64,000 nucleotides of DNA from assembly GCA_965205975.1 (NCBI GenBank), contig OZ242195.1:3168001-3232000 (forward strand). Reading direction: 5' to 3'. Made by a program: the position numbers and the translations under genes. Numbering within the stretch: position 1 is the stretch's first letter; every line of letters begins with the position of its first letter. The notes below the pieces were generated by a model. It saw only the letters and a program-made list of their open reading frames with translations. It was not told the DNA's origin and did not search any database. Source of the DNA: Candidatus Latescibacterota bacterium. Lineage in GTDB: Bacteria > Latescibacterota > UBA2968. Shown piece after piece: positions 1 to 19,644 of the stretch.

Positions 1-312
1 TTCCTGAGCGACCATTTCCACGTACAGCATGGAAAGCTTCGCGCTTGAGACCCCGACTTCCCGATGCGCTGTCCCATAGCCGATACGGTAAAAAGACAGG
101 CGATGAACGCCCTCCGACAGACGCAAGACAAAACGGCCCCGTTCATCGGTTATTGTACCCACTGCGCCATCATCGAGTTTGATATCGACATTGCCCATTG
201 CGCGTTGGGTCTTGTGATCAAAAACATATCCCTCGAGCAAACGCGTCTCTTGCGATGCGCTGATCGCGAAAAAAAAGAACACAACAATAAAAAAAGAAGC
301 CGTGAATCTCAA
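1..312 (-). CDS. TonB-dependent receptor, N-terminal part only (runs off window start); paralog of 2187..4388
   Basis: Manual translation from TTG at 312: MRFTASFFIVVF...LLEGYVFDHKTQR...TDERGRFVLRLSEG, closely matching the N-terminus of 2187..4388; GGAG RBS upstream. Confidence 0.85.
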   Translation of the reverse strand, partial: MRFTASFFIVVFFFFAISASQETRLLEGYVFDHKTQRAMGNVDIKLDDGAVGTITDERGRFVLRLSEGVHRLSFYRIGYGTAHREVGVSSAKLSMLYVEMVAQE

Positions 313-330: not shown

Positions 331-370
331 AAAAAGCCCTCACTCTATCCTGAGAAAACCGAGTGAGGGC
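331..370 (-). terminator. Hairpin plus U-tract between lipoprotein and TonB receptor (copy 1)
   Basis: GCCCTCACTC (336-345) pairs with GAGTGAGGGC (361-370), followed by TTTTT on the minus strand. Confidence 0.6.
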
Positions 371-377: not shown

Positions 378-869
378 CTACTGATCTACGACACGCACGG
401 GAATGGGAATCGTGCGAAAATCTACATGATCGTCATGGGTGACCTGGAGCTCAATCGTAGTTTCGCCTACCTTGAGGCCGCGCAGTTGGAATTCAAACTT
501 TCCTACATCTGCAGGCTCCTGATGAACTTCCACAACTGTGTTATCGGCAATCGCCCATGTAAAGCTGTCATCTGGATCATCTGGCGGGTCAATTTCGTCG
601 CCATCGTGGTCCAGGAACATAATACTCCATTTAGCAGTAAGTCCACCATTGGGAACTTCGAGATGACCTGCCCGACCACCGCTGGCATCGATCGCCCCTT
701 CAAAATAGCGGAAGAATCGATTGCCCGAATCTATGATAACCAGACCCTCAGGTTCGAAATGCTCTTCGTGTTCAGACATGGGATCATCACTACCACAACC
801 AATCACAAACAGAGTCAGAACTGCCACAGCGGCAAAAGTGCGTTGAAGCGATTTTCTTCTAAAAAACAT
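378..869 (-). CDS. His/acidic lipoprotein, putative metal-binding partner of the TonB receptor (copy 1)
   Basis: Start MFFRRKS after AGGAG RBS; lipobox-like VIGC; HEEHFEPEG and HDDHVDF motifs; paralog of 4452..4940. Confidence 0.8.
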   Translation of the reverse strand: MFFRRKSLQRTFAAVAVLTLFVIGCGSDDPMSEHEEHFEPEGLVIIDSGNRFFRYFEGAIDASGGRAGHLEVPNGGLTAKWSIMFLDHDGDEIDPPDDPDDSFTWAIADNTVVEVHQEPADVGKFEFQLRGLKVGETTIELQVTHDDHVDFRTIPIPVRVVDQ

Positions 870-871
870 GA

Positions 872-1004
872 TAGTCTCCTGAATGGTAAAACCTGTACAG
901 GGCACACGGGCTCACAGAGAGAGACCCTCTTATTCAGGCCCGCACAAAAAGGCACAAAAATAAAGCAACCTTCAGTATTAAGATATTCAGTATTCAGGAG
1001 ACTA
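872..1004 (-). promoter_or_regulatory. Anti-SD/SD attenuator stem (copy 1)
   Basis: 872-884 tagtctcctgaat is the exact reverse complement of 992-1004 attcaggagacta; pairs the leader's last codons with the downstream AGGAG. Confidence 0.75.
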
Positions 1005-1272
1005 CTGGAGGGGATCGGCCCTGCGGCAAAAGAAAAAACTGGTGGGATAAAAATGTGGCGTTCGACAGAAGATAAAACCAACAGACATATAACGCGCGAA
1101 AAATAACTATGGCACTGATAAGACCACAAAAGCTGTAAACCCAATGGCAAACAAGACAATGGATATCATGCTCTACATGGTCAAATGCATGCCCAAAGGC
1201 AAGGGCAAATGCGCCGATGAACAACACGACGACCAGTGTTTTAACGAATGGATATTTGGTGTGTAGATTCAT
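994..1272 (-). CDS. DUF2946-like leader peptide (TM segment, HxxHCxxCH, C-terminal RSPP)
   Basis: Hydrophobic N-terminus, HDIHCLVCHW, ends QGRSPPVVS; paralog of 5067..5363. Confidence 0.75.
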   Translation of the reverse strand: MNLHTKYPFVKTLVVVLFIGAFALAFGHAFDHVEHDIHCLVCHWVYSFCGLISAIVIFRALYVCWFYLLSNATFLSHQFFLLPQGRSPPVVS

Positions 1273-1323
1273 CTCAATAGTGTGTCTTTAACAATCAAAC
1301 CCGGCCCTGGTTCCCAATAAATA

Positions 1324-1347
1324 TGCAATACATCATATCTTATTGCA
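1324..1347. promoter_or_regulatory. Inverted-repeat operator candidate upstream of cassette copy 1
   Basis: TGCAATA-N10-TATTGCA perfect dyad overlapping a TTGCAA-17-CATATT promoter-like arrangement on the minus strand. Confidence 0.5.
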
Positions 1348-1397
1348 AGTCTTGAGTGATTTGCGGTTTCCAAAGACTCCTGATATTCAATAGATAC

Positions 1398-1799
1398 TTA
1401 CCAGATTGTTGCCACTTGTGATTGCTGAATTTTTTCATCTTTACTGATCAGCGGCAATTCCATATACAGCGCAGTACCCGCAATGATGCGGTCAGGCATA
1501 TCAGGCACTATTGTTCGGGGTATCTCAGCTATTTTGTGAACAATATCCTGGGTTAGATCTACCAAAACCAAATTGCTGTCACCTGTTTTTAGATTATCGT
1601 GAAGCAGTTGCTGATTTTCAAGTGGAATACGACCTTTCTCTTGTAAATAAAGAATTTCAACCAAACAGATCGTGGGTATGTAAATGAAAGCGTCGTCTTG
1701 TTCACAGGCATCAAAAATTTGGCTGGCCTTAGCTCCTAGAAGAACGCTACCCTCCAAATACCAGATCAAACCATGTGTATCAGTGACTGCACGAGTCAT
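1398..1799 (-). CDS. vapC: PIN-domain toxin (VapC family)
   Basis: VTDTHGLIWYL start and PDMPDRIIAGTA PIN motifs; ATGA overlap with the upstream small gene. Confidence 0.85.
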   Translation of the reverse strand: MTRAVTDTHGLIWYLEGSVLLGAKASQIFDACEQDDAFIYIPTICLVEILYLQEKGRIPLENQQLLHDNLKTGDSNLVLVDLTQDIVHKIAEIPRTIVPDMPDRIIAGTALYMELPLISKDEKIQQSQVATIW

Positions 1800-2035
1800 T
1801 GGGAAACCTCTCGAGGGAAATTGTCCCACATTTCCTTACGGTTTTCACGTATTTCTTTATCCGTGATGTTTAGTCCTTTCCAGATACCTCGTAGAGATCT
1901 GTTTGGGGCCTTCTTTATCCCTTTAAGATCATGTTCTACTTGATCGGTCATACCGCGAATCAATTGAATCTTCTCCTCAACTGACAGCGAACGCGTTGTA
2001 TTCAAAATTTCTGCCACCATGGGATCAGTTGCCAT
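1796..2035 (-). CDS. Putative antitoxin of the PIN toxin
   Basis: 79-aa ORF with GGAG RBS, RSLRGIWKGL...REMWDNFPRE; translationally coupled to the PIN gene. Confidence 0.75.
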   Translation of the reverse strand: MATDPMVAEILNTTRSLSVEEKIQLIRGMTDQVEHDLKGIKKAPNRSLRGIWKGLNITDKEIRENRKEMWDNFPREVSQ

Positions 2036-2115
2036 TTCAGACCTCCATTTATGTGCTCTGCCACAAAATTTGCTTTCTTTCATTATTTCCAAAATGAAAG
2101 ATATGACTTGACCTC

Positions 2116-2154
2116 AAAAAGAGCAAGCCCCAGATCAGCAGACTGAACTGGGGC
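2116..2154 (-). terminator. Intrinsic terminator after TonB receptor
   Basis: GCCCCAG...CTGGGGC stem (2127-2154) followed by a T-rich run on the minus strand. Confidence 0.6.
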
Positions 2155-2186
2155 GTAGTGAAGTGTCAGCATATCTGACCGCTAAA

Positions 2187-4388
2187 TTAAAAGAAAAACA
2201 TCTTGTAATGCACTTTAATGCTCCGCCCTGTCTCGGGCATCACGGATCGAATGCGCGAAAGATGGTTGCGGTATTCCGTATCCAAAAGGTTGTCCAAAGA
2301 GAGAATAATACTATGGCGAGTATGATCGGTATTAATATCGCGCTGGGCATAGACACCGAAAACAGCATAGCCATCCGTAGGATCTTCAAATATATCCACG
2401 CGCTCCTGTCCCGCGACAAATTCCGCAGTCCCGCCAACAGTAAAATAGGGATGATGATAGGTCGTACTGCCGACAAACTTGAGCGGCGGAATCTCGGGCA
2501 GGGGCAACTGCTCATCCCGGTTCTCGCCACGCACATAACTGCCGTTTAATTCCAGATTCAAACGCGTATTTAAACGCCACCCCAGATGCATCTCCAGACC
2601 CAAAAATCGCGCGGCAACACCATCGGCAGCGTAAATCGGCAAAAGTTGGGCAAAATTGATCTCTCCGGTATTGCGCGGGGCAATATAGGTATCAAACTCG
2701 TTCCAATATCCGCTCAAAACAAAATCGACGCCCGGTTGCAAATAATGAAAAAAGACCTCGAAGCCCAGGCTCGTTTCGGCCTCGAGATCGACATTGCCCA
2801 CCTCAAAAGTGTAAGCAGCCAGATGCGGCCCATCGTTATAAAGCTCTTCAATAGTAGGCTCCCGCTGGGATCGGCTTAAGTTTAAACCGCCGGTTAGCCG
2901 GTCAGTAATAGTCACAAGCGGACTAATCGCTGCAGACCATGCGTGAAAGGTGCGACCTACACGGAGAGCCGCCAGACTCCTTGTCGTCGGACGCGGATCA
3001 AAGTCGGCATACGTATAACGCGCAGAAGCCTGAAATTCGATATCGCGATAAATAAATTCGTGGTAGAGACCTAATGAAGCGCATTGCTCTCGCGTGGGCG
3101 GTGTAAAAACAAATCCCCCCAATTTGAGGTTATGATGGCCAAAGCCCAGGGACAGAACGGTATTTCGCGTCTGGCCCTGTGTGTTCATAAGCAATTTGAG
3201 ATCACCGCGGTAGTCGTGGAACAAAAACTCGGACCCAATACTGCCACTGGACTCGTACTCGAAGTGGTGATAGAAGGTCCTGGTAAAATCCACCTCTACG
3301 CTACTGAACACCTGGTGATCAAAATGGAAGGCCGCCCTGCCATCAAATATCCGGCGATCAATATCCAGATCTACGCCATTGGGATGTCCGCCAATAAACC
3401 CTCCGGGAATGCCGTATTGGGTATCGAACTGATCAAAAGAAGCACCGATATATCCCCGGTCAGTGGGATACGACAGACCGAGCGTATGTGTGCGCGTATC
3501 AATAGGTGTGTTGACAAGCCTGCCAATGGGGGTTTGCACATCCCGGGTATTGCGGTACGTGGTCTCGGCATACAGCGCAAGCGGACCCACGGGCACTGTA
3601 ATCCCAGCGGCTGAGAGATACCCTCGATTGACCGTCTCGCCATAAGCACCAACACTGCCAGAAACGCGCTGCGGATGGTATTCGGGAATTTTTTCTTTCA
3701 CGACATTGATAACCCCACCAATGGCCGATGCCGTGTGAAGCAGTATGCGCGGTCCCCGAATAATTTCGAGGCGTTCTGAATTAAAAGGCTCAAGCGTAAC
3801 AGCGTGATCGGCAGAAGTAGCGGATAAATCTCGAGTCTCCATACCATCTATATTGATCTGTATGCGGTCGCCACTGAGGCCGCGTATAACTGGTCGAGCA
3901 GGTGCAGGACCCATGCTGCGGATGGCGACACCGATTTCGTTTTTCATCGTCTCGGCAAGCGTGAGACTGTACTTCTTCTGAAGTTCATCTCCCGAAAGCA
4001 CGCCAGTCGCTTCGTACAATTCTTCAAAGCGCGTCTCAGCACTTTGGGCGACCACCTCAATGGTATCCGCAACAATTTCCCGGGCAACCATTTCGATGTA
4101 CAGAATGGGCAATTTCTCATCCGAAACCCTTATTTCCCGACTCACCAATCCATACCCAACACGAAAAAAAGACAGGCGATAAACACCCTCCGACAGACGC
4201 AAGATAAAACGGCCTCGTTCATCGGTTGTCGTGCCCTCTGCGCCATCATCGAGTATGATATCGACATTGTCAATTGTGCGTTGGGTCTTGCGATCAAAAA
4301 CATATCCCTCGAGCAAACGCATTTCACCCGCTGCGTTGATCGCGGAAAAGCAGACCACAAAAACGAGAATGAAGGCTGTAAATCTCAA
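2187..4388 (-). CDS. TonB-dependent receptor, ZnuD-like
   Basis: 733 aa, signal peptide, plug motifs ARPVIRGLSGDRI and EIIRGP, EELYNDGPHLAAYTFEVG, C-terminal F. Confidence 0.9.
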   Translation of the reverse strand: MRFTAFILVFVVCFSAINAAGEMRLLEGYVFDRKTQRTIDNVDIILDDGAEGTTTDERGRFILRLSEGVYRLSFFRVGYGLVSREIRVSDEKLPILYIEMVAREIVADTIEVVAQSAETRFEELYEATGVLSGDELQKKYSLTLAETMKNEIGVAIRSMGPAPARPVIRGLSGDRIQINIDGMETRDLSATSADHAVTLEPFNSERLEIIRGPRILLHTASAIGGVINVVKEKIPEYHPQRVSGSVGAYGETVNRGYLSAAGITVPVGPLALYAETTYRNTRDVQTPIGRLVNTPIDTRTHTLGLSYPTDRGYIGASFDQFDTQYGIPGGFIGGHPNGVDLDIDRRIFDGRAAFHFDHQVFSSVEVDFTRTFYHHFEYESSGSIGSEFLFHDYRGDLKLLMNTQGQTRNTVLSLGFGHHNLKLGGFVFTPPTREQCASLGLYHEFIYRDIEFQASARYTYADFDPRPTTRSLAALRVGRTFHAWSAAISPLVTITDRLTGGLNLSRSQREPTIEELYNDGPHLAAYTFEVGNVDLEAETSLGFEVFFHYLQPGVDFVLSGYWNEFDTYIAPRNTGEINFAQLLPIYAADGVAARFLGLEMHLGWRLNTRLNLELNGSYVRGENRDEQLPLPEIPPLKFVGSTTYHHPYFTVGGTAEFVAGQERVDIFEDPTDGYAVFGVYAQRDINTDHTRHSIILSLDNLLDTEYRNHLSRIRSVMPETGRSIKVHYKMFFF

Positions 4389-4402
4389 AACATACCTCCT
4401 AT

Positions 4403-4440
4403 AAAAACCCTCACCCGGTCTTTCAAAAACCGGATGAGGG
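4403..4440 (-). terminator. Hairpin plus U-tract between lipoprotein and TonB receptor (copy 2)
   Basis: CCCTCA-CCCGGT...ACCGG-A-TGAGGG stem then TTTTT on the minus strand, same position as in copy 1. Confidence 0.55.
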
Positions 4441-4451
4441 CAAAGCAGTTA

Positions 4452-4940
4452 CTACTCTCCGACATGCACCGGAATGGGCAGCGTGCGAAAATCCACATGA
4501 TCGTCGTGTGTGACCTGGAGTTCAATCGTAGTCTCGCCTACCTTGAGACCCCGCAGGTGAAAATCAAACTTGCCGACATCGTCGGCATCCTGAACAACTT
4601 CCAAAACCGTGGGATCGGCAATCGCCCATGTAAATTTGAAATCCGGATCATCTGGCGGGGCAATCTCGTCGCCATGGTCATCCAGAAAACGGATGCTCCA
4701 GTGCGGCGTTTCCTCATTGAGGGGGGCGTCAAGATGATCTGCCCGACCACCGCTGGCATCAATCTGCCCTTGAAAATAGCGGAAAAAACGATTGCCCGAA
4801 TCTATAATAACCAGACCCTCGGGTTCGAAATGCTCTTCCTGGTGAGACATGGGATCGTCACTACCACAACCGATCACAAAGAAAGCCAGAACTGCCACAG
4901 CGACAAAGGTGCGTTGAAAAGATTTTCTTCTAAAAAACAT
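4452..4940 (-). CDS. His/acidic lipoprotein (copy 2)
   Basis: MFFRRKS start after AGGAG; VIGC lipobox-like; highly similar to 378..869. Confidence 0.8.
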   Translation of the reverse strand: MFFRRKSFQRTFVAVAVLAFFVIGCGSDDPMSHQEEHFEPEGLVIIDSGNRFFRYFQGQIDASGGRADHLDAPLNEETPHWSIRFLDDHGDEIAPPDDPDFKFTWAIADPTVLEVVQDADDVGKFDFHLRGLKVGETTIELQVTHDDHVDFRTLPIPVHVGE

Positions 4941-4944
4941 GATA

Positions 4945-5077
4945 TAGTCTCCTGAATAAGCCCGCACGGGCAGAGAACACGCAGAGGGGTCCCCTCTTAT
5001 GCCCGCACAAAAAGGCACAAAAATACAGAAAAATAATGCAAACTTTAGTATGGAGATATTCAGTATTCAGAAGACTA
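4945..5077 (-). promoter_or_regulatory. Anti-SD/SD attenuator stem (copy 2)
   Basis: mRNA UAGUCUUCUGAAUA (5077-5064) pairs with UAUUCAGGAGACUA (4958-4945): 14 bp including one G-U wobble. Confidence 0.75.
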
Positions 5078-5363
5078 CTGGAGGGGCTCGGCTCTGAGGT
5101 GAAAGGAAAAACTGGTGGGATAAAAATGTGGGGTGCGGCAGAGTGAAAAAACAACAGGCGTATAATGCACCAAAAACGACTATGGCACTGATAAGACCAC
5201 TAAAGCTATAAACCCAATGGCAAACGAAGCAATGGGTGTCATGTTGACCATGGTCACCATGGTCACCATGGTCAACCGCATGCCCAAAGGCAAGGGCAAA
5301 CGCGCCGACGAGCAATATGACGATCAGCGTTTTAACGAGCGGGTGTCTGGTGTAGAAATTCAT
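5067..5363 (-). CDS. DUF2946-like leader peptide (TM segment, His-rich, CxxC, C-terminal RAPP)
   Basis: DHGDHGDHGQHDTHCFVCHW, ends QSRAPPVVF. Confidence 0.8.
   Translation of the reverse strand: MNFYTRHPLVKTLIVILLVGAFALAFGHAVDHGDHGDHGQHDTHCFVCHWVYSFSGLISAIVVFGALYACCFFTLPHPTFLSHQFFLSPQSRAPPVVF
5247..5273. repeat. 9-bp tandem repeat (ACCATGGTC x3) encoding DHG repeats
   Basis: Directly visible; not expanded in paralog 994..1272. Confidence 0.85.
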
Positions 5364-5416: not shown

Positions 5417-5869
5417 CTATTTGTCCCCCGCGGAATGCGCTCGCAATTGTCTAATCGATTGCAATCGCAAAAGCAATTTTTCGAGATTTGATTTTAGCTC
5501 TTTCTGGATCTCGACCATTTGCTCGGGAGTCACCTGTAGATTTTCTTTTTCGCCATGGTGTCCATGACCGTGATCATGGGCTTCTTCCGAGTCATCTCCC
5601 GGCACTTCAACCACATTTTTTTCCCACAATTCAAAGTCTTTTTCGATAACCTGAAGACTATCGCGTATTTCCACAGCATGATGTGAAAATGACTTTAGAC
5701 TATCCAGTTGGTTCTCAAATTGCTCTTCAATTTCCATCATCGCCTTGTGAATATCCGCCGCCTGTTGCAAGTGGTGTGCATCTTCTTTATTTTCTCCATG
5801 GCAAGAAACAAAGAACGCAAACACTACAACACTTATCACTTTGAGTCGCATTGGATTTTGTCTCTCCAT
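5417..5869 (-). CDS. His-rich helical lipoprotein
   Basis: FVSC lipobox-like, WEKNVVEVPG followed by HDHGHGHH. Confidence 0.75.
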   Translation of the reverse strand: MERQNPMRLKVISVVVFAFFVSCHGENKEDAHHLQQAADIHKAMMEIEEQFENQLDSLKSFSHHAVEIRDSLQVIEKDFELWEKNVVEVPGDDSEEAHDHGHGHHGEKENLQVTPEQMVEIQKELKSNLEKLLLRLQSIRQLRAHSAGDK

Positions 5870-5897
5870 ATTTTACGTCTCCTTTCGCGTGTTTATC

Positions 5898-6296
5898 CTA
5901 TTTTTCACAATCATCTTTGCGACATAAATGATGATTCCGAATATGGCCTGAGATCAAAAATCCCGACCCTAAAACGGTCCCCATCCGCTCCCCTATTTCC
6001 CCAAAAAGATCATGGCCAACCATAACCATTACGACGAGAAGGGACAGCCCAAGGATACCGAGACCAATGACAAATTGATCTTTATGACGGCGACACCCCA
6101 ACCCAAGGGCAAGAATGCTGGTGGGCAGAATCAGCCACATCAAAAGCCCATGAAAATGTTCATCGCCAACAAATGTAGTTGCCAATAACGGAAACGCAAT
6201 AAGTGCAACAGGCAATGTCAAACAATGGACCGCACACATTGTTGAAAGAACAATGGCGATTTTGTCACCTGCGGTTTGATAGCTCAAACGCGCCAT
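5898..6296 (-). CDS. MerC-domain membrane protein
   Basis: DKIAIVLSTMCAVHCLTLP motif, four hydrophobic segments, HIRNHHLC tail. Confidence 0.85.
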   Translation of the reverse strand: MARLSYQTAGDKIAIVLSTMCAVHCLTLPVALIAFPLLATTFVGDEHFHGLLMWLILPTSILALGLGCRRHKDQFVIGLGILGLSLLVVMVMVGHDLFGEIGERMGTVLGSGFLISGHIRNHHLCRKDDCEK

Positions 6297-6331
6297 TTAT
6301 TATCTCCTTTTTATTGATAATAACGACACAC

Positions 6332-6865
6332 TTAATATGTATCACCAGGATTGTTTTTCATATCACGCGTCTCCACCACCTCGGCTTTACTGATGCGAAA
6401 AAAGAGTTCGGAAGGATCTTTTTGCAACAGTTCCAGGCGACCTGTAATGGTAATAGGATCATAAGTAAAATCAATCGGTTTGCTCGGACGAATATCTACC
6501 AGAGACTCAGGCCCACCCCCGCCTACACAAAACGAACATCCCCCAAGTGAATACGGCGTCAAGACAAAACGCGTTTGTTTTTTTTGAGCCGATAGCGGAA
6601 TCATAAATCCGACAAGCTCAACGTACTTGCCATTCATTTTTTTTAATGTATCGGAAAAAATGGGCACAAAGTTCGGCGCATAAGGATCATAACTCACAGT
6701 CGCAAGGGTTTCCCAAAGCGAACCCTTCATCATCTGGGGCAGTGGAGACGCCTGAAGCTCTGGGCGATGGTCTGTTGACGAGGGCGGTGCTTCACTGCCA
6801 GTATCTATTCTCAAAACCACAGCAAATAACAAAATAAACATTACCGTGCGTTGTATATTCATCAC
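6332..6865 (-). CDS. DUF3299 family protein (ZrgD-like)
   Basis: LVGFMIPL...FVLTPY...CSFC...ITITGRL motifs. Confidence 0.75.
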   Translation of the reverse strand: MMNIQRTVMFILLFAVVLRIDTGSEAPPSSTDHRPELQASPLPQMMKGSLWETLATVSYDPYAPNFVPIFSDTLKKMNGKYVELVGFMIPLSAQKKQTRFVLTPYSLGGCSFCVGGGGPESLVDIRPSKPIDFTYDPITITGRLELLQKDPSELFFRISKAEVVETRDMKNNPGDTY

Positions 6866-8136
6866 GACACCTCCACCAGTGTTTGTGCAACATCTGTTCG
6901 ATAGACCTGAAGCGCGGGTATAAGAGCCGATACACTACCCAACACAAGCGCCAGACCAATGAGCCAGAATTCATCGGACAAAATAATCCATCCCGTCAAA
7001 TTTATATGCTGTGCCTCGCGCACCCACGCGCCAATCACCTCAGTGCTTGCATGCCCAATCACAAAACCCAACCCCGTACCCATCAATGTAAGCAAGACCC
7101 CCTCCAAAAGCACCTGAACAAAAAGTTTACCGCGACTTGCCCCCAGAGCACGCATCATAGCCAGATCGTATCGCCGATCTTTCATCGCATTATAAAGTGC
7201 CACAAAAATGCTCAACGCCGCTGCAAACACCAGAACCCCACCAAAAACCCGCACCACCTCCAACCCAACACCGAGCAATGCAAAAAGGCGCGTTGTCTCA
7301 AATGCGGGGGACGCAGCCTGAAATTTGGTCTCTTTGTTCACATACCTTGGAAATGACACGGCTGCAATGGGTGAACGATAGCGAATCAACAAACTCGTGA
7401 CTTCGCGCTCGGCATCGGCTTCACTGTCCATCGGCAAACCGAGAACATCGCGTGCGCGATCCTCATCGGCCTGGCTCTCCATGTGGTGATCCTGTTCATC
7501 GCCCTCTTCTTCATGCGGTTCGTGAACCAGCCAGACCGTCTCCACAGAAGTCAATAACAGACGATCGATAATCGAACCCGTTGGTTGCAAAACACCCACC
7601 ACGCGAAACGGTTGCGATTCGTGTTGATCAGAAGCAGTTTCTGCGGTCAAACCGTGCGAGCTAATAATCTCGTCACCCAGCGCAAGACCTGTCACGCCGG
7701 CAACCTGCGCGCCTATGACCACCTGATATGGTACATCCCAAAAGGTACCGTCAACCAATTCCGCCCGGTAGTGTTTGGCGTATGCGGATGTCGTTCCCAC
7801 AATGCGATATCCCCGATAATTATCCCCCAACGCCAGAGGTATCACCTGTGCAACCGCCCTGTTTTTTGCCAGTTCACGCGCCTCTAAAAGCGGTATGTTA
7901 CCCGTTGGCACGTCAACGTGAAAAACACTGGACAAAATCAATTGCAGGGGACTGCCCTTAGCACCCACAACAACATCAATATTTTCAACATTACGGTGCA
8001 AATTCTCTTCAAATTGTTCGCCAAAAAGCAACAAAACAACGACAATACCCGTTCCAAGTCCCAACAATATCATATTGAGCAATGTATTCAACTTGCGCCG
8101 ATAAATATAGGCCAGACTAATTTTGAAGAGATTCAT
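6862..8136 (-). CDS. MacB/FtsX-type ABC permease
   Basis: VVGAKGSPLQLILSSVFH, RRYDLAMMRALGA; His/acidic periplasmic loop. Confidence 0.9.
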   Translation of the reverse strand: MNLFKISLAYIYRRKLNTLLNMILLGLGTGIVVVLLLFGEQFEENLHRNVENIDVVVGAKGSPLQLILSSVFHVDVPTGNIPLLEARELAKNRAVAQVIPLALGDNYRGYRIVGTTSAYAKHYRAELVDGTFWDVPYQVVIGAQVAGVTGLALGDEIISSHGLTAETASDQHESQPFRVVGVLQPTGSIIDRLLLTSVETVWLVHEPHEEEGDEQDHHMESQADEDRARDVLGLPMDSEADAEREVTSLLIRYRSPIAAVSFPRYVNKETKFQAASPAFETTRLFALLGVGLEVVRVFGGVLVFAAALSIFVALYNAMKDRRYDLAMMRALGASRGKLFVQVLLEGVLLTLMGTGLGFVIGHASTEVIGAWVREAQHINLTGWIILSDEFWLIGLALVLGSVSALIPALQVYRTDVAQTLVEVS

Positions 8137-8786
8137 GCGGGCAATTCCACCTGTTCATCAAGCGCAATACAATGGTCAAAACTATCGGTAATACGATGAT
8201 CATGTGAGGCTACCACCAGAGTTGCCTCAACCTCTCGCGCCGATGACGTGAGCAAATCCAACACCTGCTTGCTGCGCGCGTCATCCAATCCAGATGTCGG
8301 TTCATCGGCCAATAATAATTGGGGGCGATTAACAACAGATCGGGCAATTGCCACGCGCTGTTGTTGACCAAAACTCAGTTCCGATGGATAAGCGTGTTCG
8401 CGACCTGCCAGACCGAGAGCCGCAAGCACCTGTTCGGCACGCGCTTTATCCTGCGGAACACCGGCCATATAATGCGCCATAAGCAAATTTTCCAGCACCG
8501 TAAAAACCGGGAACAGGTGAAATTGTTGAAAAACAATGCCAATGCGTTGCCCGCGAAATCGATCGCGAGCGGTCTCTGTCAGTGCATAAATATCCTGTTT
8601 GGCAATATGCACACTGCCCTGTGAGGGCTTTAACAAACCAGCTATAATATGCAAAAGCGTCGTCTTCCCGCTTCCCGATGGCCCGTGCAACAGCCATTTT
8701 TCATCGGGCTGGGCCTCAATATAATCTGGCAAGTCCAATACAAGACGACCACCATAAACATGCCCAACGTGTTTAAGTGCAAACAT
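8133..8786 (-). CDS. ABC transporter ATP-binding protein (LolD-like)
   Basis: Walker A GPSGSGKTT, signature LSFGQQQR, LLLADEPT. Confidence 0.9.
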   Translation of the reverse strand: MFALKHVGHVYGGRLVLDLPDYIEAQPDEKWLLHGPSGSGKTTLLHIIAGLLKPSQGSVHIAKQDIYALTETARDRFRGQRIGIVFQQFHLFPVFTVLENLLMAHYMAGVPQDKARAEQVLAALGLAGREHAYPSELSFGQQQRVAIARSVVNRPQLLLADEPTSGLDDARSKQVLDLLTSSAREVEATLVVASHDHRITDSFDHCIALDEQVELPA

Positions 8787-8860
8787 GAAATAGTATCCAA
8801 AAAATGCGATGTGTGACTTCAAAATGTGCCGTCAAAATCGAACGGATGAGGCAATTTCGG

Positions 8861-10099
8861 TCATGCTGACTCTTCGACCATGCGAAGCTCCGGAAACGGG
8901 TTCCGGAACCCTGCCCAGGTCTTGCTGTTAGCGGAGGCGAGGCGCTCGTCGAGCAGACACGCGTCGAGGCGAGCGCGCATCGACGCCTCGTGCATCTGCT
9001 GACCGATGAAGACGAGTTGCTGCGCGCGATCGCCGAAGCGAGGATGCCAGTCCGGATGCTGGTCAGGGCGCTGACCCTCGGGGTGACCCCAGTGTTCGCG
9101 AGGCACGGCCGCCCACCACATCCCAACGGGGTTCACATTGATGACGCCGCCGGCTTGAGACCACTCGTAGAGGACCCGATGGTCAGCGGCGACCCAGAAG
9201 AAGCCCTTCGAGCGGAGCACGCCGCTCCAGTTCTCGGCGTCGTGCAGGAGATCCCACAGTTTCTCGGCGTCGAAAGGCTGCGACGTCCGATAGGTGAAGC
9301 TCGAGATCCCGTACTCCTCGGTCTCAGGCGTGTGCTCACCCTGAAGCTCTCGAATCCAGCCGGCGGAGTGCGCCGCCTTCTCGTAGTCGAACAGGCCCGT
9401 GTCGAGCACGCATTCGAGCGGAACCTGTCCGCGCGTCGCCATGAGGACCTCCGCGCCGGGGTTGAACGCTTTCACGATGGCCTCGACCTCGAGAGCCTGA
9501 TCGTCGCTCACGAGATCGAGCTTGTTCAGCACGATGACGTCGGCGAACTCGATCTGGTCGATGAGCAAGTCGGTCACTGTCCGGTGATCTTCTTCGCCCA
9601 GCGACTCACCGCGGTCCTGGAGCGCCTCGGAGGCGGCGTAGTCCCGCAGGAAACTCGCAGCGTCCACGACTGTGACCATCGTGTCGAGGCGCGAAACCTG
9701 ACCCAGGCTCACACCGTTCTCGTCCTCGAAGGTGAAGGTCTGCGCGACGGGAATGGGCTCCGAGATCCCCGTGGACTCGATGAGCAGGTAGTCGAAGCGT
9801 CCCTCCTGCGCGAGCCGTGAGACCTCGGCGAGCAGGTCGTCTCGCAGCGTGCAGCAGATGCAGCCGTTCGACATCTCGACCAGCTTCTCCTCGGTCCGCG
9901 AGAGTTCCGCACCGCCGCGCTCAACGAGCGTCGCGTCGATGTTGACCTCGCTCATATCGTTGACGATGACCGCGACGCGCATGCCCTCGCGGTTGTTGAG
10001 CACGTTGTTGAGTAGAGTGGTCTTGCCTGCGCCGAGAAAGCCGGACAGGACAGTAACGGGAAGTCTCTCTGATAGGGGCACTTTAGTTTCCTTACTCAT
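8861..10099 (-). CDS. COG0523/CobW-family metallochaperone GTPase (ZigA/YciC-like)
   Basis: [28 protein letters not shown], CobW_C region LRSKGFFW. Confidence 0.95.
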
Positions 10100-10488
10100 A
10101 CCGCATTGCCACACGCATCACAGGTTCCGAGCAATACCACCTCATGTCCCGTCATCTGAAACCCGTCTGGAACCAGGGAATCGAGGCCCTCGACGCAACC
10201 GAAGAGGTCAAACGCATGGTCGCAGGTCGAACAAAGAAAGTGATGGTGATGCTCGCGGTCCTTGGGCTCGTACCGAACGCCGCGGCCCAACACCTCAACT
10301 GCCTCCAGCGTGCCTTCCTCAACACCCCGTTGGAGCGCGCGATATACCGTGGCGAGACCGATACGCTCTCCCCTTCCGCTCAGGCGACTCCACAATTCCC
10401 TGGCGGATAGGGGGCCGTCCGCTTCGCCAAGGGCTCGCAAGACGGTCAGCTGCTGTTTCGCTCTCTGCTGTTGATTAGCTCTTTGCAT
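10096..10488 (-). CDS. Fur-family transcriptional regulator (Zur/Fur-like)
   Basis: [26 protein letters not shown]. Confidence 0.92.
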
Positions 10489-10494: not shown

Positions 10495-10523
10495 ATGATA
10501 ATCAATTCTCACATTATTGTCAA
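10495..10523 (-). promoter_or_regulatory. Sigma70 promoter with overlapping Fur-box-like dyad; probable leaderless transcript
   Basis: TTGACA (10523-10518)-17 nt-TATCAT (10500-10495)-6 nt-ATG; dyad TGATAAT-CA-ATTCTCA at 10496-10511. Confidence 0.7.
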
Positions 10524-11489: not shown

Positions 11490-12569
11490 CTACGAAAACG
11501 CCTGACTCATATTTTTCCGATGCAAAATAAACCAGACCACAATCGGCGCGCCAATCAGGGACGTCACCGCATTCAGCGGCAAAACAAATTGACTACCCGG
11601 CAAATGGGCGATCAGATCGGATAGCAGCGCCAGCGTCGCCCCCAGGCAAGTAACCGCAGGCATAAGCACGCGATGATCCGACGTATGCAACAGACTGCGG
11701 CAAAGATGCGGCACAGCCAAACCCAAAAACGCAATCGGACCGCAAAAAGCAGTGGTTGCGCCCGCCAGAATCGACGCACTGACCAAAATCCACAAGCGAA
11801 TGCGTTTGACATTCAAGCCCATACTACGCGCATAATTTTCCCCCAGCAACAGCGCATTGAGCGGCTTAATACACAAAAACGCCAGCAACAGACCCACCAA
11901 AATAGCAGAAATGAGCACAGGCATTTGTCGCCATGTCACACTCCCAAAACTGCCAAAAGTCCACAAAATGTACGACTGTATCTGTTCGGGAACGCTAAAA
12001 TAAATCAGAATACTGACAAAAGCCCCCGTCGCGTACCCAAACATCAACCCCAAAATCAGCAACGTCATCACACTCTGCACACTGCGAGACACCAGCAACA
12101 CGCACCCCAACACAGCGGCTGCACCCATAATAGCCGCAACCGCCAAACCCAAATCGCCCAGAAAGCCCAACCCCGCGATAAGCACACTACCGACCGAACC
12201 CACCGTCAGCACCACAATAGCAACGCCGAGACTCGCGCCGGCACTGATACCCAGCACAAAAGGATCAGCCAGCGGATTGCGAAAAAGCGTTTGCATCTGC
12301 AACCCACTCACGGAAAGCGCCGCACCTGCCAGCACAGCGGTAATCGCCTTCGGCAGTCGAATCGTATGAACAATAATCGCCCACGCCGGAGAAAACACTT
12401 CTCCGCCCGTAAGAATGCCGAACAAGCCCGCCAATGGAATATGAACTGACCCCAGCGACAAACTCAAGCCGAACGCGACCAGGAGCATTAAAAATAACCC
12501 CAGCATAATAACCGCGTGCCGCGACCTCCCCTGCGGTTCATCTTTACTTTGATTCTCTATCCCGACCAT
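11490..12569 (-). CDS. FecCD/BtuC-family ABC permease
   Basis: IRLPKAITA, FRNPLADPFVLGIS, GPIAFLGLAVPH. Confidence 0.92.
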   Translation of the reverse strand: MVGIENQSKDEPQGRSRHAVIMLGLFLMLLVAFGLSLSLGSVHIPLAGLFGILTGGEVFSPAWAIIVHTIRLPKAITAVLAGAALSVSGLQMQTLFRNPLADPFVLGISAGASLGVAIVVLTVGSVGSVLIAGLGFLGDLGLAVAAIMGAAAVLGCVLLVSRSVQSVMTLLILGLMFGYATGAFVSILIYFSVPEQIQSYILWTFGSFGSVTWRQMPVLISAILVGLLLAFLCIKPLNALLLGENYARSMGLNVKRIRLWILVSASILAGATTAFCGPIAFLGLAVPHLCRSLLHTSDHRVLMPAVTCLGATLALLSDLIAHLPGSQFVLPLNAVTSLIGAPIVVWFILHRKNMSQAFS

Positions 12570-12613
12570 CCTCTCATCCTATTTTAGACAGGAATTTTCA
12601 TCCGCATCCATCT

Positions 12614-12654
12614 GTTCATCGGTGTTCATCTGCGTTCATCTGCGTTCATCTGCG
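12614..12654. repeat. Decamer tandem repeat (GTTCATCTGC family)
   Basis: gttcatcggt gttcatctgc gttcatctgc gttcatctgc. Confidence 0.75.
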
Positions 12655-13645
12655 GATACCTTTCAGTGCCGCAATCAAATCGGCAATCGAATCGCATTCC
12701 CGAACCACGCCAGCGCGCTCAACACACCAGGCCCCCTTCCCGAATATTGACGCACCACTCAGCCCCCGCATCTCCCACTTGAAACCCCGCCCTCTCCAGC
12801 GCGCGCCTGGTCCAATACGCACGGCGTCCTTCCCCAGACACAGCAACTGAGGCGTGACCGCGTTGGGCATTGAGCTTAAACGCACCCGTATCCGCGTCAA
12901 AACGCACACCATCACTCTGAAACGCGCCTTCAAAAGCACCATTGAGAATTAAATCCTCAGGCGCGCCAGTCTGCAACCCGCCCTCAAAAGGCAAAAGATA
13001 GATGCGATCTGCACAGCGCAGTGCCAGATCCAAATCGTGCGTCGAAAGCAGAATCGCCTTACCGGTAGAATGTGCCAGATCCTGCAACAAAGCCATAATC
13101 TCAGCGCGGCGGGGCAGATCGAGAAAAGCCGTAGGTTCATCCAGAATCATAAGACCGGGCTGCTGCGCCAGCGCGCGTGCAATCATAACCTTTTGACGCT
13201 CGCCATCGCTGAGTTCGGTCACATTGCGATATGTTAAATCCTCAGCGCGAGCTGCCCGAATAGCCCAGGAAACAACCCGTTCATCTTCATCTGTAAAGCG
13301 TCCGATCCAATCCGTATGGGGATATCGTCCCAGACCGACCAGATCGCGCACAGCCATAATACCAACACCAATGCGGTCCGTAAGCACCACGCTAATCACC
13401 TGGGCAACTTCTGTAGCAGACATATCCGCGATATCCCGCCCCATAAGACAAACATGCCCATCGAGCGGCGGCTGCATTCCCACAAGCGTGCGAATAAGCG
13501 TGGACTTCCCCGCACCATTGGGACCGAGCAAACACACAAACTCACCGCGATGGAGCGACACATCTATATCGCGTGCCACAACGCGAGGCGGACGACGACC
13601 GTATTTGTAACCCACAGCGAGATTTTGTGTTTTGAGAATCGCCAT
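12646..13645 (-). CDS. FecE/BtuD-family ABC ATPase; called ORF stops at 12719, probable frameshift at the C5 run 12732-12736 extends it to 12646
   Basis: GPNGAGKST, LSDGERQK, ILDEPT; removing one G gives ...EGAWCVERAGVVRECDSIADLIAALKGIRR*. Confidence 0.85.
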
Positions 13646-13743
13646 TTTCCATCCGAGTGAACAAAAAAACGGGTCGCGCCTTTTCTTCTGTATTCACGAA
13701 ACCCGTCTCTTGTAATTGCTCGTATCAATCTGCGTGCTGTCAG
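13646..13743 (-). pseudogene. HicA-like toxin remnant
   Basis: Manual translation LTARRLIRAITRDGFREYRRKGATRFFVHSDGK resembles the HicA N-half; no start codon; lies downstream of hicB across the IS. Confidence 0.6.
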
Positions 13744-13900
13744 TCAACCACCCACGGTTAAAGCCTGTGGGCTTGTCCCTGCCGCGTCACATCCCCGGGC
13801 AGTTGCCCACCATTGGGGCACGGCGAGACTTTAGGCTTGTTGACACAAAGCCCTTGCTCGGATGTTCCGAGCAGCGTTGCGGTCGGCGTGGTCTTGATGG
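13743..13900 (-). ncRNA. Putative TnpB omegaRNA/reRNA scaffold (5' boundary uncertain)
   Basis: Expected position over the tnpB 3' end and right end; terminal hairpin visible. Confidence 0.5.
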
Positions 13901-14922
13901 CCACACGCTTTGCAAAGGAAGGATGTTTGGTCTTGTCTATTGGCTTTCTCACAGTGTCCACACTCGGCACACGTTTGGCTGGTGTATTTCGGATCCACAG
14001 GGATCACGGAAATGCCAGCACGTCTTGCTTTGTATTCAACGAATGTGCGAAGCTGGAAGAAAGACCACCCAGACATTTTAGCACGCTGAGGCTTGCGAAA
14101 CCGTTTCTGGCTCTTGCGGATGCCTTCGAGGTCTTCAAGAGCAATCGCTTTGCCAGTGTCTTTAGCCTTCTCAACCATGCGTTTGGAGATGATGTGGTTG
14201 GTATTTCTACGAAACCTGCTCTCTCTGCCGGAGAGTAGGGAGAGTTTTCTGCGAACATTCTTGGGTCTCTTGCCTTGCTTGACAAGGGCAGACGCTTTCT
14301 GCTGGAGCGACTTTTTCAGATCGTGCATCTTCTGTCGGACATTTTCAACCGTGTCGCCAGAAAATGTTTCACCATCGTCTGTAACAGCAAGGTTGGTGGT
14401 GCCGAGATCAACGCCAATGAAGTCTGTCGTCAGTATCGGCGTGCCGTCGGGTACATCGACAGAGACAAGCAGAAACCACTTGCCGTCTTTGCGGAGCACA
14501 AGGTCTGCCTGTCCTTTGGCATAGCCAAACTGCTCACGCTGATAGTTGCCCATCAACATTGGCACAAGAACACGCCCTTCAAGCGTCAGCAAAGAAACAC
14601 GGTCTATGCCCTTGAAACTATACAGGCGTTGATCATACGGTATGCTTGCATGCTTACGGAACGATGGTTGCACTGACTTATCGCGCTTATACGCCTCTAC
14701 AACTTGAGCAATACAGCGAATAGCCATTTGTGCAGAGAGACCAAACAAGCGGCGTAAGTCTGAGTAGCATAGCTTTTGTAGTGCAAACTTATTCGCCAGC
14801 TTGCGCTCATAAGCCTTCAGAGCAAGCCAATTGGCGGCTTCGTTGAACCGCTCAATAGTGGCTTTTAGCTTCTGTGCTGTAGCAACATCTGGCAACAGTT
14901 GTATTTGAAGTGTCAGTTTCAT
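13831..14922 (-). CDS. tnpB: RNA-guided endonuclease TnpB
   Basis: RuvC motifs IGVDLG, IALEDL, HADRNAARNI; zinc ribbon CAECG/CKACG. Confidence 0.95.
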   Translation of the reverse strand: MKLTLQIQLLPDVATAQKLKATIERFNEAANWLALKAYERKLANKFALQKLCYSDLRRLFGLSAQMAIRCIAQVVEAYKRDKSVQPSFRKHASIPYDQRLYSFKGIDRVSLLTLEGRVLVPMLMGNYQREQFGYAKGQADLVLRKDGKWFLLVSVDVPDGTPILTTDFIGVDLGTTNLAVTDDGETFSGDTVENVRQKMHDLKKSLQQKASALVKQGKRPKNVRRKLSLLSGRESRFRRNTNHIISKRMVEKAKDTGKAIALEDLEGIRKSQKRFRKPQRAKMSGWSFFQLRTFVEYKARRAGISVIPVDPKYTSQTCAECGHCEKANRQDQTSFLCKACGHQDHADRNAARNIRARALCQQA

Positions 14923-15037
14923 ATTGAGAAATATAGTCAATAAGGATGAGGCCTTCAAGGGGCAAATTGCTAAAGCACACCAAAACCGTAAGCCCTCCGC
15001 CATGCGACCCAACGCTAAAGCTCTCTGCGAGTGGGCT

Positions 15038-15277
15038 TCACGGGCTATTGGGTGAAGAAGGCTCAGAAGGAATCTCTTCGCCATTCTCCAGCAGATACGC
15101 AACAAGAAGATCAACAGCGTTTTCTAAATTCTCTAACGCCTCTTTCTCGGTATATCCCCAACTCGCAGCCCCTCTATGTTCCAACGCGGGAATATAAGCT
15201 CTCCAGACCGCTTTCCCATCCGGCTCATCGGGCCACTTGTCTTTCTCCAAGACAGCCTTAAATAAATATGTTTTCAT
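15038..15277 (-). CDS. hicB: HicB-family antitoxin, C-terminus probably truncated by the IS
   Basis: AYIPALEHRGAASWGYTEKEALENL...GEEIP; stop codon lies in the IS left-end region. Confidence 0.8.
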   Translation of the reverse strand: MKTYLFKAVLEKDKWPDEPDGKAVWRAYIPALEHRGAASWGYTEKEALENLENAVDLLVAYLLENGEEIPSEPSSPNSP

Positions 15278-15306
15278 ATATTTTCCTCAGAATGACTACT
15301 CCACTA

Positions 15307-16896
15307 CTATTTTGTCAGCAACATCTTGCGCGTGACCACATCTGTCCCGGCTTGTAAGCGATACACATACAAGCCCGTACTCACCTGACGCCCAGCAGCA
15401 TCACGCCCATCCCACACGACCGTATAATTTCCCGTGGACTGGAACTGCTGAACCAGCAACCGAATTTCCTGCCCCAGTACATTGTAGATCGTCAATCGTA
15501 CATTCACTGCATCGCCCAAAGAATAGCGAATAGTCGTCGCTGGATTAAACGGATTCGGATGATTCTGATCCAATGAAGCTACAAAAGGATTGATAAAACG
15601 CACATCACCGTTCAAATTGACCTCATAAGTCACGCGGCTTCCGGGCACTATTGGAATACTGGACCACCTCGCAATGGTCGCACCATCTGCCGAACGCACG
15701 CGCGCCTGATACATGCCATTCACACGCCTCTGGTCATCCGCCATCACCCTCACCACAGCACGCCCCATCTCATCTGTCGTATTATGCCACGCATAATTGG
15801 GCACGCGACCGGCAATCGAGCGAGAAACCTCCACCGCCAAACCGCTCACATTGCCATCGCCTACAACCTGCACATCCACCAGACCAGCACCTTCGAACGC
15901 CGTATCGGACTCCAGGTAAATACCAGCACCCACAATAAAAACCCGACCGAAGATGTTAAGCGGGATCACATAGCTCTGCTTGGGCGATTGGGTGTCTTCA
16001 TCTCCTTCTATCGCCGGATTGTCCCAATAATACTTAACAAAACCGCCGCCCGCTGTCGCCGTCGCGATAATCTCCTGCACAATTTTGACCCCATTAACAT
16101 CTTCGACATCAATCATATTTTGCCCATAAGAACTCGGATCAGCGGTCCCGTGAAAGATCAATACACCGCTGGTATCTATCACAAAAATGTAGATCGAACC
16201 ATACTTGAAATCCTCTCCCTCGGTCCTGATTGCAGCCTGGACGGTTGCCAGATAGGGATAACCCTTTTCCTCAATAATGGGAACGAGAACTCTCAACCCC
16301 TCTACAAAAGCTTTCAGCGTTTCCTTATCCTTCACATCACGGGCTGTTACCTCCAGGATATCAAAGATATTTGGCTCCGCGTCAACGCCGGACAGATCCA
16401 TATAAAAGCCAGCAGCTACGATCAACTCGAGACCGCGTATAGTAACCGGAGCAGCGTAAGTCAGCTTGGGCGAATCGGCATCTCCTTCCACCGCTGGATC
16501 ATCCCAATAATACTCGACAAAACCGCCGCCGCCAGCGGCTGCGGCGAGCATATCCTGGACAACCTTAACGCCTCTGGCATCTTCGAGATCAAGTACATTT
16601 TTATCCTCAAACGTCACGTCGTCCCCGTGAAATTGCACGAGACCTTCGGAAGTCAATACCACGAGATACATCGAACCGGCCTTCCAATCTCCCTCGCTCC
16701 TGAACACCTCCACTAATCTCGAGACCTCAGCAAAGTTAGCGGCGCTCTCTAAGGAATCCTTTGCCCCTTCTACAAAAGCTTTCAGAGTCTCTCGGTCCAC
16801 CACCTCACTCGCCGTTACCTCCTGACCCTGTACAACGGCAGGATGCACGACAAAAAAGAGACTGGCCAGCCCCAAAATAATTATCAAATATTTCAC
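15307..16896 (-). CDS. Secreted protein with two Cache-like domains, an unnamed module and a FlgD/T9SS-like C-terminal domain
   Basis: Duplicated ETLKAFVEG...GSxYxxV...GGGFVxYYWDxPA; NHPNPFNPATTIRYSL...IYNVLGQEIR tail. Confidence 0.85.
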   Translation of the reverse strand: MKYLIIILGLASLFFVVHPAVVQGQEVTASEVVDRETLKAFVEGAKDSLESAANFAEVSRLVEVFRSEGDWKAGSMYLVVLTSEGLVQFHGDDVTFEDKNVLDLEDARGVKVVQDMLAAAAGGGGFVEYYWDDPAVEGDADSPKLTYAAPVTIRGLELIVAAGFYMDLSGVDAEPNIFDILEVTARDVKDKETLKAFVEGLRVLVPIIEEKGYPYLATVQAAIRTEGEDFKYGSIYIFVIDTSGVLIFHGTADPSSYGQNMIDVEDVNGVKIVQEIIATATAGGGFVKYYWDNPAIEGDEDTQSPKQSYVIPLNIFGRVFIVGAGIYLESDTAFEGAGLVDVQVVGDGNVSGLAVEVSRSIAGRVPNYAWHNTTDEMGRAVVRVMADDQRRVNGMYQARVRSADGATIARWSSIPIVPGSRVTYEVNLNGDVRFINPFVASLDQNHPNPFNPATTIRYSLGDAVNVRLTIYNVLGQEIRLLVQQFQSTGNYTVVWDGRDAAGRQVSTGLYVYRLQAGTDVVTRKMLLTK

Positions 16897-19020: not shown

Positions 19021-19021
19021 C

Positions 19022-19582
19022 TCAAAAATCAATCCCGGGTTGCGCAACAATACCCTGATCACTAAACGGATGCTTAATCTCCCGCATCTCGGTCACCATA
19101 TCGGCAAAATCAACCAGCTCATCGGGCGCATCCCGCCCCGTAATAATCACATGCAACATCTCGGGCTTGTGCTCCCGCAGCCAATCCACCACCTCTGTTG
19201 CATCCAACCATCCAAAAGCCATCAAATACGTAAACTCGTCCAGAATAAACAGATCGTAATTCCCGCTAACAATCCGCTCCTGCGCCACTTCCCAACCGCG
19301 CAATGCCCGAGCCTGTGTCTCATCGATATCCTTACTCGTCCACGTCCACCCATCACCCGTACCAATCCAATCAATCTCCATGCGCCTGGCCGCGCGAATC
19401 TCGCCAAAATTGGCATTCTCGTGCTTCAAAAACTGAATTACGCCCACGTGCATCTTGCGCCCCCATGCGCGGGTCATCACCCCCAGCGCCGCAGTGGTCT
19501 TGCCCTTGCCATCTCCGGTATTGACCATCACCAGACCCTTTTTCACATGCCGCTTGCGCTCTGTCTCTTTTTTGGCACTCAT
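19022..19582 (-). CDS. cobO: Cob(I)yrinic acid a,c-diamide adenosyltransferase
   Basis: [37 protein letters not shown]. Confidence 0.95.
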
Positions 19583-19601
19583 AAAAACCTCTCTTTTGGA
19601 T

Positions 19602-19638: not shown

Positions 19639-19644
19639 GGCTTT

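Follow-up and report, generated by a model that had tools for sequence, protein, structure and literature searches.

Two small leader genes in a sponge-associated Candidatus Latescibacterota bacterium (assembly GCA_965205975.1, contig OZ242195.1) likely form a zinc variant of the nascent-chain switch described for copper. They lie on the minus strand, as do the genes and elements of the locus described below, of the 64,000-nucleotide stretch analyzed here (positions 3,168,001 to 3,232,000; the window), where a tandem duplication has given each leader its own downstream genes for a lipoprotein and a TonB-dependent receptor; a third leader, sought in the rest of the genome, was not found. The reading we favor, to which we assign a probability of about one half, is a zinc-relieved stall with unmasking of the Shine-Dalgarno (SD) sequence, which would turn the importer on when zinc is scarce. 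We infer that each small open reading frame (ORF) encodes a CruR/CutF-like sensor that works as a nascent chain and controls a translational attenuator. A ribosome translating it would pause at an RSPP or RAPP motif with the first proline in the P site and would cover most of an anti-SD arm, leaving the SD of the lipoprotein gene free and the importer unit to be made. Available zinc would then relieve the pause by binding the membrane-targeted nascent chain at its His/CxxC loop, the ribosome would terminate, and a stem of 13–15 base pairs (bp) would close over the SD, lowering expression. Because import genes are needed under metal scarcity and the stem is open at the stall, metal should relieve the stall; by analogy, the logic should be the input of CruR joined to the output of CutF.

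Leader copy 1 (994..1272, 92 residues) and copy 2 (5067..5363, 98 residues) are ∼70% identical and, as the initial annotation had described, each carries an N-terminal transmembrane (hydrophobic) helix and the motif HxxHCxxCH, with the ends RSPPVVS in copy 1 and RAPPVVF in copy 2. In copy 1 the first helix is followed by the His/Cys loop, a second hydrophobic helix, RSPP, three residues and the stop codon. The size gap between the copies reflects 18 nt repeated in frame within the His loop; the putative metal site of copy 2 (5217..5282) shows a His-Gly-Asp repeat expansion, and that of copy 1 runs from His28 to His43 (1144..1191) with CxxC at 39–42. The arrest-motif codons occupy 1006..1017 (RSPP) and 5079..5090 (RAPP), and the CxxC-to-RxPP spacing is 43 in both copies. 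A structure model of the leader places helices at residues 8–31 and 40–80; its predicted template modeling score (pTM) of 0.43 signifies low global confidence, and the model was therefore not used for metal geometry. A Foldseek search with it returned no match.

To define the family, a profile was built from 16 leaders. It matches 51 of the 168 genomes of the phylum, all 20 congeners among them, and 160 clusters (50% identity) at E ≤ 0.001 in a search of 1.84 billion representatives. Among the best 150 homologues, CxxC is universal and RxPP stands near the end of 145 (82 RAPP, 58 RSPP, 5 other RxPP; 5 have none), with a spacing between the two motifs of 42–46 in 145. In a set of 147 homologues, from which one 401-residue match and two without the pattern were left out, a hydrophobic segment precedes the His loop in 145, 113 have another such segment past CxxC, and no Met lies near the putative metal site in 132. 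HxxHCxxCH, proposed earlier as the leader motif, holds in both copies and at the level of the genus; family-wide, the sole invariant residues of a 110-row alignment are H28, C39, C42, P88 and P89. Mean column identity across the ∼160 clusters has fallen to 23%, with the His, CxxC, RxPP and their spacing still kept, and the ratio of nonsynonymous to synonymous substitution rates (dN/dS) from CxxC to the stop is 0.45 among 28 closely related leaders. Neighbors of the leader in language-model features belong to Omnitrophota, Acidobacteriota and Verrucomicrobiota clusters, which we note as a lead only.

By score, the leaders are borderline kin of DUF2946 (PF11162), the family of CruR and CutF, in line with the kinship suggested by the initial annotation. 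Copy 2 matches at 23.3 bits (E = 1.1e-4) against a gathering cut-off of 23.7, copy 1 gives no match, 4 of the 16 aligned leaders match at E ≤ 0.1, and one of 46 distant homologues passes the cut-off (29.4 bits); in addition, one ESM Atlas neighbor cluster of the leader is 54% DUF2946. The CxxC and RxPP motifs and their spacing (43, compared with ∼45 in CruR) agree with those of the family. The copper-homeostasis operon context was not found, no copper chaperone or oxidase being the first gene after any of 61 distinct leaders (only first genes were classified).

The stem that joins each leader to its lipoprotein gene is real and well conserved. In copy 1 the Val-Val-Ser-stop codons (anti-SD arm, 992..1005) face the SD arm of lipoprotein 1, which includes AGGAG (871..884), and positions 992–1004 pair with 872–884 in 13 perfect Watson–Crick bp. 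In copy 2 the Val-Val-Phe-stop codons (5064..5078) face the SD arm of lipoprotein 2 (4944..4958), and 5064–5077 pair with 4945–4958 in 14 bp, with one U-G pair at the Ser-to-Phe change. Both pairings are exactly as first reported; the spacer, which had been called diverged, is partly so, and the spacers of the two copies still align. Pair probabilities in the stems are 0.74–1.0. When the ribosome-binding-site (RBS) region was shuffled, none of 5000 shuffles matched the run of copy 1 (with or without G-U pairs) and 2 of 5000 matched that of copy 2 with G-U pairs; without them the run of copy 2 is 7 bp, which 340 of 5000 shuffles reached. The z values for folding of the whole segment are −2.7 (copy 1) and −1.8 (copy 2). 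Against a genome background of 416 other same-strand gene pairs with spacers of 80–350 nt, the longest Watson–Crick run was 8; with G-U pairs, 5 of the 416 reach 10 bp and one reaches 13.

Conservation was examined in 36 leader–lipoprotein loci, the two from the window included, and the run between leader tail and RBS is at least 10 bp in 28 of them. Thirty loci were aligned, six distant ones being left out, and 98.3% of the alignment cells are paired, versus 33–61% in slid registers. In all 30 the final sense codon is either TCC or TTC and the stop either TGA or TAA; for the preceding Val, GTC and GTT are the sole codons used (27/27), and nearly all of the variation in the stem is C-to-U opposite G. 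A single compensatory change was seen (locus L021, where the stop TGA becomes TAA together with TCA to TTA). The RNA folding and covariation check proposed earlier thus bears out conservation of the pairing and finds strict covariation weak. More divergent pairings were tested with 22 of the 61 leaders, picked by hand and preceding various downstream genes: at a threshold of p ≤ 0.05, the native pairing outdid synonymous redraws of the tail in 13 of 22 loci, and it outdid shuffles of the RBS flanks that kept the SD core fixed in 15 of 21. For 14 hand-picked divergent loci the cognate tail–RBS duplex averages −16.3 kcal/mol, a value matched by none of 20,000 permutations, to which base composition may contribute. 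In L142, one locus found by a single-protein scan for a distant clade, the leader (the homologue above the DUF2946 cut-off, from an unrelated clade) has a different anti-SD that pairs with the SD of a receptor gene. In 2 of the 15 congeners that have the ATP-binding cassette (ABC) ATPase gene, a leader copy stands directly ahead of that gene (L087 and L088; genomes G015 and G004). There the gene has no SD, the leader tails have no anti-SD codons, the duplex is −3.0 and the spacer is pyrimidine-rich; these leaders before ABC/DUF3299 genes may act through termination. Two tandem leaders precede one transporter gene in L080, L083 and L086. In L003/L032 (genome G009), an in-frame loss has taken the His/CxxC loop out of one leader copy and left RSPP and the stem in place; such a copy may be naturally blind to metal, or may be decaying.

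Ribosomes cover the message downstream to about +15 to +17. Since the first Pro codons lie at 1011 and 5084, with Pro in the P site as in CruR, the anti-SD arm occupies +7 to +20 relative to these codons. In the model, removing the ribosome-covered part lowers the cost of opening the RBS from a median of 10.7 to 6.7 kcal/mol across the 36 loci, the genome median being 6.5 and the 95th percentile 10.7 kcal/mol, and the cost falls by at least 2 kcal/mol in 27 of the 36. The initial annotation had the switch act on the receptor as well as on the lipoprotein; direct action on the receptor does not agree with the layout. The receptor gene has its own unmasked start and sits behind a terminator-like hairpin with a U-run (336..370 in copy 1; 4407..4441 in copy 2, 10 nt 3′ of the stop of lipoprotein 2), which in most congeners begins ∼7–12 nt past the lipoprotein stop, just ahead of the receptor start. 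The receptor is therefore probably controlled in an indirect way, by polarity or through this hairpin, which could set the ratio of lipoprotein to receptor or relay the switch; a ribosome at the lipoprotein stop codon could hinder its formation.

The genes downstream of the leaders are, judged by sequence, of the zinc-scarcity type (ZnuD-like receptor, ZnuA/B, FolE2), with ZigA upstream. FolE2 is a marker of zinc scarcity. The receptor (copy 2, 2187..4388, 733 residues; the window holds the 5′ part of copy 1 at 1..312, which is 733 residues long in the genome and 90% identical to copy 2) matches ZnuD best of 21 NCBIfam families (E = 4.5e-67, compared with 9.8e-18 for the copper receptor model). 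Its best PDB match is 4RDR. The high-affinity zinc ligands of ZnuD are D99, H100, E340 and H499 (PMC4557270), and equivalents of D99, H100 and H499, three of the four, are aligned in the receptor (the numbering offset of 14 was worked out by hand with that paper). Upstream of both units, the COG0523 gene (8861..10114) encodes a ZigA-type zinc metallochaperone GTPase that scores 625.5 bits against NF038288, above its cut-off of 600. The first gene after the 61 leaders encodes the lipoprotein in 42 cases, a ZnuD-like receptor in 5, a porin-like protein in 5 and a second leader in 3; the remainder are two ABC ATPases, one MerC remnant, one other receptor and two unassigned genes, after which Pfam places MerC and FolE2. 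ZnuA and/or ZnuB follow the porin gene in all four porin loci scanned, and the ZnuA-family proteins of these loci fit the AztC (Zn) and MntC (Mn) models about equally well. The cargo genes, not a Zur box, make zinc the best guess: the Zur/COG0523/ZnuD-like context claimed at the outset stands for ZigA, ZnuD, and the ZnuA/B and FolE2 genes behind homologues, and lacks a Fur/Zur box before the leaders.

The lipoproteins themselves contain His and have lengths of 163 residues (copy 1, 378..869, with a weak Big_2 match and no family above cut-off) and 162 residues (copy 2, 4452..4940). Matches occur in 47 of 61 related genomes, and a leader precedes all of the matches examined except five: L042 and L044–L046, where a longer protein ends in the lipoprotein domain, and L026. 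The domain has no Pfam family, forms tandem repeats in family f2 and occurs as the C-terminal domain of proteins of 370–1070 residues; it may be an unnamed metal-binding domain.

The Zur part of that context, the single Fur-family gene of the genome (10096..10523), was overstated on two counts. Its 7-2-7 inverted repeat (10496–10511) covers its own −10 element and is kept in relatives, and a genome-wide search allowing ≤2 mismatches finds this Fur-type repeat at that promoter alone; a Fur/Zur-type box was sought before either leader and not found, and no shared palindrome was found outside coding DNA upstream of 58 leaders. A GCAAT/ATTGC repeat upstream of copy 2 was rejected as a Zur box because it lies inside coding sequence. 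Moreover, a Fur-family match is present in 11 and absent in 9 of the 20 congeners, with the leader kept; 8 of these 9 genomes are single-contig and 97–99% complete, and the search control matched in 13 of 14 genomes. DtxR-family genes are present in all 21 genomes of the genus. The Fur-family gene has a near-consensus promoter with the ATG ∼7 nt past the repeat; its transcript is probably leaderless, and copy 2, which lies inside a longer same-strand gene cluster, may be co-transcribed from this promoter. For leader 1, a weak candidate promoter (TTGCAA, 17 nt, CATATT; 1320..1348) was picked by eye below the scanner threshold, and a similar stretch is present in L049, L055, L058 and L111. Small proteins resembling ribbon-helix-helix (RHH) proteins with Cys-rich parts (judged by eye, no Pfam match) are encoded upstream of distant leaders (L078:2-400, L082:459-872, L084:593-1009 and L142:338-595) and are possible metal-responsive repressors. 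The L082 type is found in 4 of 53 genomes of the order; such a protein was rejected as the regulator here, none being found in the genome or the genus.

How metal might free the ribosome can be considered from the geometry of the stalled chain. At the stall, 46 residues would separate Cys42 from the P site, and the second helix would start at ∼44–48; helices that are being inserted start to exert force on arrest peptides at ∼45 residues from the P site (PMC7886326). The match of these distances suggests that metal held by His28 and CxxC draws a membrane hairpin shut, freeing the ribosome; CruR shares the spacing, so geometry alone is no proof of a special mechanism. Extended to the family, the idea is that at least 160 clusters of mostly unannotated membrane-hairpin arrest peptides sense zinc mechanically, bridging of His and CxxC pulling the chain and re-hiding the SD, and that they replace Zur in Latescibacterota without a detectable Fur-family protein. 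We regard this extension as tentative and somewhat doubtful.

Several results weigh against a zinc-relieved, stem-based switch. The modeled opening cost falls by less than 2 kcal/mol in 9 of the 36 loci and is unchanged in copy 2 (7.6 to 7.7), as a 7-nt repeat that follows the stop makes a slipped pairing available there. When the ribosome mask was applied to longer RNA the SD was still mostly paired elsewhere (unpaired probability 0.00–0.49). Covariation in the genus-level alignment is not significant (49–54 of 500 shuffles score as high), L008 breaks the pair that L021 compensates, both pairing tests failed in L081, L082, L086 and L092 with an SD present, and the loci are related by descent, hence the counts given above overstate the support. 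The leaders themselves have no clear SD, and RSPP, the most common motif (42 of the 61 distinct leaders), is a weaker arrest motif than RAPP. On the side of the metal, the receptor scores 227 bits against ZnuD NF038289, below the cut-off of 950, and the region of the E340 ligand lies outside its alignment. Sites built from His and Cys also bind Ni, Co and Cu.

The same mechanics of stalling and unmasking could serve copper, nickel, cobalt or manganese, an alternative that we consider unlikely. The two tested family members use Cys motifs to detect copper (PMC9426467; 10.1101/2025.02.05.636593), CutF-like proteins with His alone are linked with Ni/Co genes (10.1101/2022.11.11.516240), a cobalamin uptake cluster lies 6–14 kb away, and the near-equal AztC and MntC scores noted above leave room for manganese; set against these are the lack of copper genes in first position, a receptor that matches ZnuD far better than the copper receptor model, ZigA above its cut-off, the recurrence of FolE2 and the rarity of Met ligands. 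If the stall acted mainly on transcription, through Rho or intrinsic termination, the stem would be secondary or a lineage add-on. CruR does use Rho (PMC9426467), leaders stand ahead of the SD-less ABC gene without an anti-SD and with a pyrimidine-rich spacer, loci of family f2 have spacers of 300–630 nt with weak or no pairing, and a terminator-like hairpin precedes the receptor. The restricted codons and the cognate-specific pairing are, however, hard to explain unless the stem matters, and both routes can coexist. A mainly transcriptional switch appears quite unlikely to us.

Constitutive damping or coupling of expression, or stabilization of the mRNA, by a leader and stem whose RSPP no longer stalls is still less probable. 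The initial annotation had named RAPP and RSPP as arrest motifs; both are present, and most copies carry RSPP, which has been described as “partially permissive” for arrest in ApdA/ApdP (PMC12992588). The loop-less copy of G009 with its motif and stem intact, the slipped pairing in copy 2 and the modest dN/dS would also suit an unregulated leader, whereas conservation of His, CxxC, RxPP and spacing at 23% mean column identity would not, and RSPP is under-represented in proteomes and recovered in arrest screens (PMC12992588). Least probable of all, by a narrow margin, is a monitor of membrane insertion, secretion or disulfide status in the manner of SecM, MifM or ApdA, with the second helix as force sensor and no metal involved. 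The second hydrophobic segment after CxxC in 113 of 147 homologues, starting ∼45 residues from the P site (compare PMC7886326), and the disulfides proposed for the CutF cysteines (10.1101/2025.02.05.636593) are what such a sensor might look like; the downstream genes serve metal uptake and are not sec, yidC or dsb, and the invariant His and CxxC and the His-rich loop would be left unexplained.

Comparison with known systems places the proposed zinc-relieved switch between two of them. CruR (Bp2923) of Bordetella pertussis, a PF11162 protein, senses copper by way of Rho-dependent termination, with a CxxC-to-RAPP spacing of 45 plus or minus 1–2 as a criterion (PMC9426467); its arrest has been shown, and in a toeprint its two prolines occupy the P and A sites (PMC12992588), the basis for the P-site proline assumed here. 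The leaders resemble CruR as small upstream ORFs with an N-terminal export signal, CxxC ∼45 residues before a C-terminal RAPP and a long spacer, heading a TonB-receptor import unit, and the predicted logic is the same (metal relieves the stall and uptake is off). Unlike CruR, which pairs copper with Rho, they have a His-rich site, mostly RSPP, a second hydrophobic helix, an anti-SD stem and zinc-scarcity genes. CutF of Rhodobacter capsulatus shares the stalled ribosome that opens a stem-loop hiding the RBS of the next gene (10.1101/2022.11.11.516240; 10.1101/2025.02.05.636593) and differs in its CxxxC and PPP motifs and in a copper-induced stall that turns a detoxifying oxidase on, compared with CxxC, RxPP and importer genes here; the sign of control is probably opposite. 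SecM, ApdA and ApdP likewise carry RAGP/RAPP-type arrest motifs near the C terminus and unmask the SD of the next gene by stalling, but they report on Sec/YidC activity, precede translocon genes and have no metal site.

A noncopper variant, which the initial annotation did not know to be described, has in fact been proposed. CutF-like clusters carry Cys, His or both, and Ni/Co has been suggested for the His-only ones, which precede HupE/UreJ (10.1101/2022.11.11.516240). Two CutF-like ORFs head zinc-related operons: CzcI of Cupriavidus metallidurans pMOL30, which has a His-rich stretch and CxxCH, and Caulobacter CC2720, a DUF2946 gene ahead of czrCBA that heads a Zur-activated efflux operon (PMC4176598). 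Both stand ahead of efflux pumps, unlike the leaders here, and CzcI has no diproline motif and is polar after CxxC; the text passages covered assign neither a stalling role. DUF2946 has also been tied to copper uptake (10.1101/072470). RAPP upstream ORFs precede TonB receptors across Gram-negative bacteria, and the RAPP/RGPP upstream ORFs of Figure 4 and the source table of that study (PMC12992588) are of the same class as the leaders here; the table lists at least nine His/Cys leaders ahead of “zinc-regulated” receptors. Its main text does not use the word “zinc” or treat stem-loops, no such leader was tested there, the extraction covered RAPP/RGPP and held no RSPP leaders, and “Latescibact” does not occur in the parts of the supplements searched. 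Searches of the open literature yielded no description or test of an arrest leader that responds to zinc, although the supplement of the CutF-like survey (PMC9973294) may list zinc-type neighbors, and according to the CruR paper no riboswitch had been described for zinc (PMC9426467). In the papers found, post-transcriptional metal sensing by arrest peptides has so far been shown only for copper. A zinc-reading leader would, if true, fill this gap and show one nascent-chain scaffold adjusted to different metals and to different outputs (Rho or SD masking), without constituting a new class of regulation; if the hairpin-pulling idea were also true, the ribosome, in place of a repressor, would control zinc uptake in Latescibacterota without a detectable Fur-family protein. 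The locus is a clean test object in offering a 13-bp anti-SD, RSPP/RAPP twins, a compensatory variant, a loop-less copy, copies before an SD-less gene and relatives seemingly without Fur/Zur.

Between the duplicated units, and outside the switch, lies a PIN-domain toxin–antitoxin pair (1398..2092). Upstream of leader 2 (5417..8822) are genes for a His-rich lipoprotein-like ORF, a MerC-like protein, DUF3299, an ABC permease and an ABC ATPase. Contigs of a related strain (mostly 90–99% alike) from four sponge metatranscriptomes of one study partly cover leader 2 and its neighbors; they were excluded as evidence because level, strand and ends are invisible and the source could be DNA. P0068 gave no plasmid match. 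An Rfam scan of window positions 1–30000 gave a sole match at gathering score, a cobalamin riboswitch at 24346–24515, which belongs to the span of a cobalamin uptake and salvage cluster (11490–24515) split by a transposon-like ORF (13831–15114, TnpB-like by eye). The MerC-like membrane protein (5898–6296) recurs in zinc-type clusters without mer genes. A FolE2 GTP cyclohydrolase gene lies at 25837–26682, and FolE2 adjoins homologous leaders in L079, L082 and L084.

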